Assembly: GCF_030013205.1 (NCBI RefSeq)
Contig: NZ_CP122648.1
Length of the DNA: 64,000 nt
From: Escherichia coli
GTDB lineage: Bacteria > Pseudomonadota > Gammaproteobacteria > Enterobacterales > Enterobacteriaceae
Direction: 5' to 3' (one strand)
The notes beneath the pieces are model-generated. The model did no database searches. It worked only from the letters and a program-made list of their open reading frames with translations, and was not told where the DNA came from. Made by a program: the position numbers and the translations under genes. Positions 37,676-37,807 of this stretch are shown here, in pieces. Each line of letters opens with the position of its first letter. Within the stretch, counting starts at the first letter, position 1.

Positions 37676-37807
37676 ATGAAAAAGAAACCGGTTGCGCAGT
37701 TGGAGCGTCAGCATTCACTGCTGGAAAATCCATGTGCTTATGGGTTGTTATCGCAGTTCCAGGCTGCGATAGTCGTTAACTGTTTTACACTTAATAAAAT
37801 AATTTGA
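37676..37807 (+). CDS. yqgB: small protein YqgB (43 aa) directly upstream of speA
   Basis: ATG at 37676 gives [43 protein letters not shown]; too short for the ORF track; translated by hand. Confidence 0.6.

Follow-up and report, generated by a model that had tools for sequence, protein, structure and literature searches.

The window analysed here is a 64,000-nucleotide stretch of Escherichia coli DNA (NCBI RefSeq assembly GCF_030013205.1, contig NZ_CP122648.1), read 5' to 3' on one strand. Directly upstream of speA it carries the small open reading frame yqgB, and the two genes meet at the speA ribosome-binding site:

37676..37807, plus strand: yqgB ORF, with the ATG at 37676-37678, 43 sense codons and the TGA at 37805-37807 (RefSeq, PF11036, NF033844).
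37805..37809, plus strand: TGAGG, the overlap of the yqgB stop with the speA Shine-Dalgarno sequence, invariant in the alignment.
37816..39792, plus strand: speA, biosynthetic arginine decarboxylase, 658 aa.

An earlier note on this DNA had proposed that the ATG at 37676 opens a 43-codon frame, and the sequence bears this out, the frame closing with the TGA at 37805-37807. The note put the end of the frame 9 bp before speA, which holds as the offset from the last base of the stop to the A of the speA ATG (37816); 8 nt lie between the two codons. The same frame is entered in the ORF listing from a GTG start, as an ORF of 48 aa (37661..37807). The absence of yqgB from the ORF track fits a default minimum length of 60 aa. 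In the 4.5 kb around yqgB, 73 overlapping ORFs of at least 20 aa were counted; the length of yqgB by itself is within chance, and it is its identity and conservation that carry the evidence.

The 867-bp metK-speA spacer was matched in 5425 of 5426 complete E. coli genomes, with an identity of at least 99% in 5414. RefSeq annotates yqgD, yqgG, yqgB and speA on this region, and the yqgB DNA is 100% identical to that of a RefSeq genome with the CDS WP_001297406.1, "acid stress response protein YqgB", at exactly matching coordinates. The Pfam family PF11036 ("virulence promoting factor") matched residues 1-43 of the 43-residue peptide (E = 4e-33, 113.3 bits, cut-off 24), and the NCBIfam model NF033844 ("acid stress response protein YqgB") scored 90.1 bits (cut-off 35). 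The 43-codon ORF is yqgB, a member of the YqgB family, and the earlier note had correctly equated it with the small E. coli protein upstream of speA. Given the RefSeq annotation and the two family matches, yqgB is an already known gene, and locating it adds nothing new. The acid-stress name is said to have originated with Hobbs et al. in 2010.

yqgB is the second of two small ORFs, yqgG and yqgB, in the approximately 500-nt leader of a yqgG-yqgB-speAB transcript. Upstream of yqgB this leader contains the following features:

37281..37318, plus strand: putative promoter and leader start, with a -35 TTGCAA at 37281-37286, a -10 TATAAA at 37305-37310 and the RNA start at about 37318.
37439..37582, plus strand: yqgG, the first leader ORF, 47 aa (PF23505, E = 3e-38; RefSeq).
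37598..37627, plus strand: hairpin CUCUUG/CAAGAG followed by UUUUCUCGUGGUUUC, between yqgG and yqgB, from the terminator scan.

The first of these is the probable promoter for the long speA leader; its status is an inferred one because the consensus scan did not list the hexamers at 37281-37310. The primer used to clone the speA 5' UTR in an earlier study begins at window position 37318 (Adams et al. 2021, PMC7815308), and a published northern blot was read as showing a yqgG-yqgB-speAB transcript. The inferred promoter is overlapped by yqgD (37077-37328, 83 aa), which is annotated in RefSeq; no Pfam or NCBIfam match was obtained for it, and its coding status is doubtful. Antisense to yqgG, on the minus strand at 37325-37540, lies the old 71-aa ORF yqgC, which matches PF17430 and is unannotated in the RefSeq record examined. 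Weaver et al. saw neither ribosome density nor tagged protein for yqgC, which is probably a spurious call shadowing yqgG.

Conservation of yqgG extended to 82 of 90 loci, including Serratia and Yersinia, and its C-terminal motif was invariant across Enterobacteriaceae, Serratia and Yersinia. A stop-anchored entropy for the last 15 yqgG codons was discarded as meaningless, the C-termini differing in length. The hairpin at 37598-37627 starts 16 nt past yqgG, and all of its pairs were kept in 64 of 64 unique sequences. These included compensatory changes: one pair was UA in 41 sequences, CG in 18 and UG in 5, and another was GC in 60 and UA in 2. The hairpin looks like a terminator or attenuator. 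Its arrangement with yqgG resembles that of a leader peptide and its attenuator, and the two together may be the part of the speA leader that actually does the sensing. No Term-seq 3' end at yqgG or the hairpin (37439-37627) was found in the Adams et al. supplement.

The ORF itself being known, the new contribution is the comparison of 79 + 9 speA loci. When YqgB was searched by word index against proteins, the clusters found all belonged to Escherichia and Shigella; this was uninformative on distribution, and the loci were therefore fetched as DNA via SpeA. Eighty Enterobacteriaceae loci were retrieved with the SpeA N-terminus as query, so that the sample is unbiased towards yqgB-bearing genomes, and 79 of them had enough upstream DNA. 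An additional set consisted of 9 loci from other Enterobacterales families.

The upstream ORF (uORF) was open in 79/79 Enterobacteriaceae loci, with a length of 42-91 codons, and in every one of them it began with the motif M[NKE]xKP[VIL]A. Its stop took one of two positions. In 59 loci it was the TGA of TGAGG, ending at -8 inside the speA Shine-Dalgarno sequence, and in 20 it was a TGA that overlaps codons 2-3 of speA (TATGTCTGA) and ends at +8, which amounts to a one-base change of phase. Both positions bring the stop as near to the start as translational coupling calls for. The third phase, in which the uORF would be fused in frame to speA, was found in 0 of the 79 loci.

Several loci carried insertions within the uORF, all of which were read through without a stop. 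These measured 6 nt in Yokenella, 21 nt in Atlantibacter, 51 nt in the Kosakonia group and 116-128 nt in Intestinirhabdus and two Enterobacter species. The insertions of 116-128, 51 and 21 nt, in L029 (1215-1575), L055 (1203-1575), L078 (1206-1575), L032, L036, L050, L077, L046, L065 and L074, lay between CUGUUUUA and UACACUU and were open in the uORF frame. They were flanked by TA[CT]AC-like duplications, which suggest that they are small mobile or repeat elements. Among E. coli and Shigella, rare yqgB alleles (P0005, P0007, P0008, P0010, P0013) had frameshifts that were compensated, an in-frame loss of 6 codons or a stop placed slightly earlier; in the E. coli variants, the compensated frameshifts and the in-frame deletion keep the frame and scramble the peptide. 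Single-member clusters of this kind could be sequencing errors.

Stop codons were counted in all three frames of two segments. Over codons 9-20, stops interrupted the uORF frame in 0 of 67 unique sequences and the two alternative frames in 13 and 17. Downstream, starting at the internal hairpin and running to the end of the ORF, the corresponding numbers were 0 of 47 sequences for the uORF frame and 45 and 44 for the others. Judged from the aligned sequences, translation that reaches speA appears to be under selection.

Outside the Enterobacteriaceae, diverged yqgB homologues ending at +8 were found in Serratia, Rahnella, Mixta and Pantoea. Pectobacterium and Dickeya had 52-codon frames with a conserved GTG start, also ending at +8, whose peptides were unrelated after about 12 residues. 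The stop was at +8 in all six distant genera with the uORF. In two Yersinia species and Erwinia amylovora the canonical ATG was lost (to CTG) and a shorter open stretch remains, which indicates that the uORF is dispensable in some lineages. Conservation of the frame in relatives, which the earlier note had named as the check on its proposal, was thus seen throughout the 79 Enterobacteriaceae loci, and Serratia, Rahnella, Mixta, Pantoea, Pectobacterium and Dickeya have a frame that is related to it or takes its place.

Entropy by codon position was calculated for 50 unique sequences of the 43-codon class. The values for positions 1/2/3 were:

Whole yqgB ORF: 0.44/0.55/0.54, no periodicity.
Codons 1-8: 0.06/0.16/0.45, coding-like.
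Codons 9-20: 1.0/0.9/0.84, essentially free.
Codons 21-37: 0.28/0.37/0.33, nucleotide-level conservation.

Only codons 1-8 were coding-like, and the conserved amino-acid blocks of yqgB coincided with RNA helices predicted by RNAalifold. The two main elements were:

37748..37772, plus strand: hairpin within yqgB, with arms UUAUCGC/GCGAUAG (7 bp) and a variable loop (RNAalifold).
37786..37791, plus strand: UACACU, in yqgB codons 37-39, predicted to pair with GGUGUA at 37864-37869 in speA through six invariant pairs.

The pairs of the 37748-37772 hairpin form in 100% of 65 sequences, their positions being invariant or changed on one side. This hairpin accounts for the 'YGLLS...AAIVV' blocks, in which third codon positions are conserved like first and second ones. 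RNAalifold also gave a small CAGC/GCUG hairpin in yqgB, and a long-range stem closes the variable region of the gene, with one pair that is AU in 44 sequences and GC in 15. The UACACU/GGUGUA outer helix is predicted to close a structure around the speA start site, and the UACACU block stays beside speA in every insertion-bearing locus. Two other candidates in this region were rejected: the 37748-37772 hairpin as an intrinsic terminator, as no U-run directly follows it, and a promoter inside yqgB from the promoter scan (TTAACT-16-AATAAT, 37776-37803), whose -10 lies in a non-conserved stretch.

The YqgB peptide thus seems weakly constrained by protein-type selection, and it probably matters little, save for its Lys-rich first eight residues. 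What the earlier note had overlooked is the kind of conservation present, which appears to fit a translated, speA-coupled leader better than a conserved protein.

A pattern of this kind would also arise if the open frame were a by-product of a conserved leader RNA structure, its translation being incidental and without function. The conservation is mostly at the nucleotide level, several predicted helices span the ORF, one of them with compensatory changes, and the yqgB start codon was unseen by Ribo-RET in vivo. No Rfam family matched positions 36900-38000 at E<=1. Against this, stops are avoided in the uORF frame only, both in segments that vary freely and in unrelated insertions, and in no case is the end of the frame more than 8 nt away from the speA AUG. 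Ribosomes also recognise the yqgB start codon in vitro, where it was detected by INRI-seq. A frame that is translated only incidentally is, in our judgement, hardly credible. As no recognisable Shine-Dalgarno sequence precedes yqgB and its start escaped Ribo-RET in vivo, translation of yqgB may nevertheless be low.

The beginning of speA has conserved features of its own:

37809..37861, plus strand: hairpin over the speA translation start, in which GUUCGCUAUGUCUGACGA (37809-37826, with the AUG inside) pairs with UCGUCAGCGGGCGAAC (37846-37861).
37883..37896, plus strand: internal speA start for the SpeA-70 isoform, with the Shine-Dalgarno sequence AGGAGG at 37883-37888 and the ATG at 37894-37896 (codon 27), invariant.

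Both RNAalifold and single-sequence folds placed the speA AUG in a 16-pair stem. The minimum free energy of speA from -12 to +50 was -21.2 kcal/mol, the lowest of 33 long-ORF starts in the window (mean -11.0); the local fold z-score at the speA start was only about -2. The AUG was predicted to be paired in 55 of 61 unique sequences, and the hairpin was predicted in Enterobacteriaceae, Erwinia, Pantoea and Dickeya. While 99% of the alignment cells were paired, 12 of the 16 pairs were invariant and there were 0 compensatory changes. Because the pairs of the start hairpin and the outer helix are almost all invariant, covariation speaks neither for nor against these two elements, and adding the nine distant Enterobacterales loci gave the test on the start hairpin no power. 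In Yersiniaceae (L083, L085, L088 and L090, at about 1140-1215), the predicted partner of the start region AUGUCUGAUGA was UUAUCGUCAG, which lies upstream, in the 3'-terminal part of the uORF region, so that the speA start there would be sequestered differently, and not via downstream speA codons.

Synonymous-site entropy was 0.27 in speA codons 1-20 versus 0.86 in codons 26-200 (p = 4e-4), and third-position entropy was low (0.33-0.61) up to about codon 50 versus 0.9-1.2 in codons 51-90. Some of the synonymous constraint at the beginning of speA may be due to the internal start at codon 27, from which the shorter SpeA-70 is made (INRI-seq, Meydan et al. 2019).

Rho-dependent termination has been shown in the speA leader, where a reporter rises in the rhoR66S background, and the same study counts yqgB-speA among its candidate uORF pairs and yqgB among the experimentally validated small ORFs (Adams et al. 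2021, PMC7815308). Its coordinates were transferred by taking the K-12 coordinate as 3123727 minus the window position, a mapping based on the distance of 57 nt to the speA start that the table row of the 3' end also lists:

37873, plus strand: Rho-associated RNA 3' end (K-12 3085854), 57 nt into speA, Rho score 3.1, flagged 'uORF' (Adams et al. 2021).

The Rho termination region reported at K-12 3086055 corresponds to window position 37672, four bases before the yqgB ATG (Adams et al. 2021). Pairing in the outer helix extends to position 37873, where the predicted speA-start structure has its 3' foot, and an RNA 3' end at this site would fit an exonuclease-trimmed fragment protected by that structure.

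Such data would also be expected if YqgB were an arrest peptide that senses a metabolite, like SpeFL, MdtU or TnaC, with stalling in response to polyamines or arginine setting the access of Rho. yqgB does lie in the leader of a polyamine-synthesis gene with shown Rho-dependent termination, and a uORF-plus-Rho mechanism for the spermidine exporter mdtJI was described in the same study (Adams et al. 2021, PMC7815308). We consider this reading distinctly improbable on the basis of the peptide itself. In arrest peptides a C-terminal motif is normally conserved, and this expectation does not hold for YqgB, whose last 6-50 residues are its least conserved ones. The C-termini include KII, NKI, TKS and FEVRYV, and extensions reach a length of 48 residues. 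A better candidate for a sensor is yqgG next to it, whose C-terminal motif is invariant. In a published arrest-peptide screen, over-expression of YqgB gave an aggregation-type heat-shock response and not the cold-shock signature typical of arrest.

A 2026 paper reports that deletion of yqgB in Salmonella lowered speA and speB mRNA, arginine decarboxylase and spermidine, and sensitised the bacteria to acid and colistin; no complementation of the deletion is reported. The same paper treats YqgB as a drug-binding protein, with ranitidine binding to purified YqgB observed by SPR. The acid and colistin phenotypes and the ranitidine binding are in line with YqgB being chiefly a trans-acting 43-residue protein for acid resistance and virulence, its place before speA being a matter of operon organisation. 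So are the names in RefSeq, NCBIfam and Pfam, the experimental validation of the protein stated by Adams et al. and the coding-type substitution pattern of the first eight codons. The comparison across loci argues otherwise. The middle of the peptide evolves freely, the C-terminus is variable, lengths of 42 to 91 aa occur and the insertions bring in unrelated residues, while those residues that are conserved are also conserved at synonymous sites and lie on RNA helices. The deletion, studied without complementation, lowered speA and speB mRNA as a cis effect would, and the heat-shock proteins induced by over-expression are of the aggregation type. We therefore regard a chiefly trans-acting YqgB as unlikely, while still deserving of weight.

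The reading we favour, at a probability of roughly 60%, is that yqgB acts in cis as a leader ORF: the ribosome terminating on it would open up the speA start and keep Rho off the leader. Ribosomes translating yqgB would traverse the conserved, structured leader RNA and terminate on the speA Shine-Dalgarno sequence (TGAGG), or 8 nt into speA. The footprint of a terminating ribosome and the reach of its helicase extend about 12-15 nt downstream, and a ribosome at the yqgB stop would thus cover the 5' arm of the start hairpin. Opening of this arm would free the speA Shine-Dalgarno sequence and AUG1 for initiation by translational coupling, giving the long SpeA isoform. Translation of the leader would also block the access of Rho, and termination in yqgB or at the beginning of speA would be prevented. 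With poor translation of yqgB, AUG1 would stay closed and the RNA bare, and Rho would stop transcription, leaving a stable 5' fragment that ends at the foot of the structure.

We infer that a cis-acting leader ORF of this kind would account for the fixed position of the stop, the read-through of insertions and the missing in-frame phase. It would likewise account for the weak constraint on the peptide, the Rho data and the lower levels of speA and speB mRNA after deletion of yqgB, and the phenotypes of that deletion could be cis effects on speA. A fuller version, which we hold tentatively and at somewhat less than even odds, describes the locus as a coupling device in which translation of yqgB gates both the buried AUG1, and with it the SpeA-74:SpeA-70 ratio, and Rho read-through into speAB. 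In this version yqgG and the covarying hairpin would form the sensing attenuator, and the published phenotypes would be cis effects.

YqgB carries the name of an acid-stress or virulence protein and has recently been put forward as a drug target; the comparative pattern points instead to a cis-acting speA leader. If this is true, the acid-stress, virulence and colistin phenotypes of the yqgB deletion would reflect lost arginine decarboxylase expression, or cis effects on polyamine synthesis, and the drug-target proposal for YqgB would rest on cis effects as well. E. coli polyamine synthesis would have a second uORF-controlled entry beside speFL-speF and mdtU-mdtJI, and the cell a means of adjusting how much of each SpeA isoform is made relative to the other. 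As a refinement open to testing, the cis-acting reading would alter the interpretation of the published YqgB phenotypes.

With the YqgB family (PF11036/NF033844) the ORF shares its sequence, its length and its place directly upstream of speA, and no difference was seen; the family names imply a protein function, to which the substitution pattern seen here gives no support. As to its mode of action, translational coupling by the opening of a hairpin is known from rpmI-rplT in the IF3-L35-L20 operon and from the coat and replicase genes of phage MS2, in both of which the products are functional proteins. yqgB-speA resembles these pairs in that the first ORF terminates at the ribosome-binding site of the second, whose start codon is predicted to be buried in a structure that a ribosome arriving from the first would unwind. 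It differs from them in that the yqgB product seems largely unconstrained and the coupling is a predicted one.

The speFL-speF system has an ornithine-sensing arrest peptide upstream of ornithine decarboxylase and also involves Rho. The arrest and sensor sequence of SpeFL is strictly conserved, and there is no stop-to-start coupling between speFL and speF. Both speFL and yqgB are leader ORFs before a decarboxylase of the putrescine pathway, with Rho acting on the leader, but YqgB has no arrest or sensor motif and the yqgB stop overlaps the speA start site. mdtU-mdtJI (Adams et al. 2021, PMC7815308) is likewise a small ORF in the leader of a polyamine operon with Rho termination downstream, and as in yqgB-speA the RNA 3' end lies <200 nt after the uORF. 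Regulation by MdtU reportedly depends on its own C-terminal sequence and on spermidine, whereas the C-terminus of YqgB is variable and YqgB is not known to respond to a ligand. Taken together, these comparisons suggest that yqgB would work most like the stop-to-start coupled leader ORFs and the uORF-plus-Rho attenuators of polyamine genes, mdtU-mdtJI and speFL-speF.
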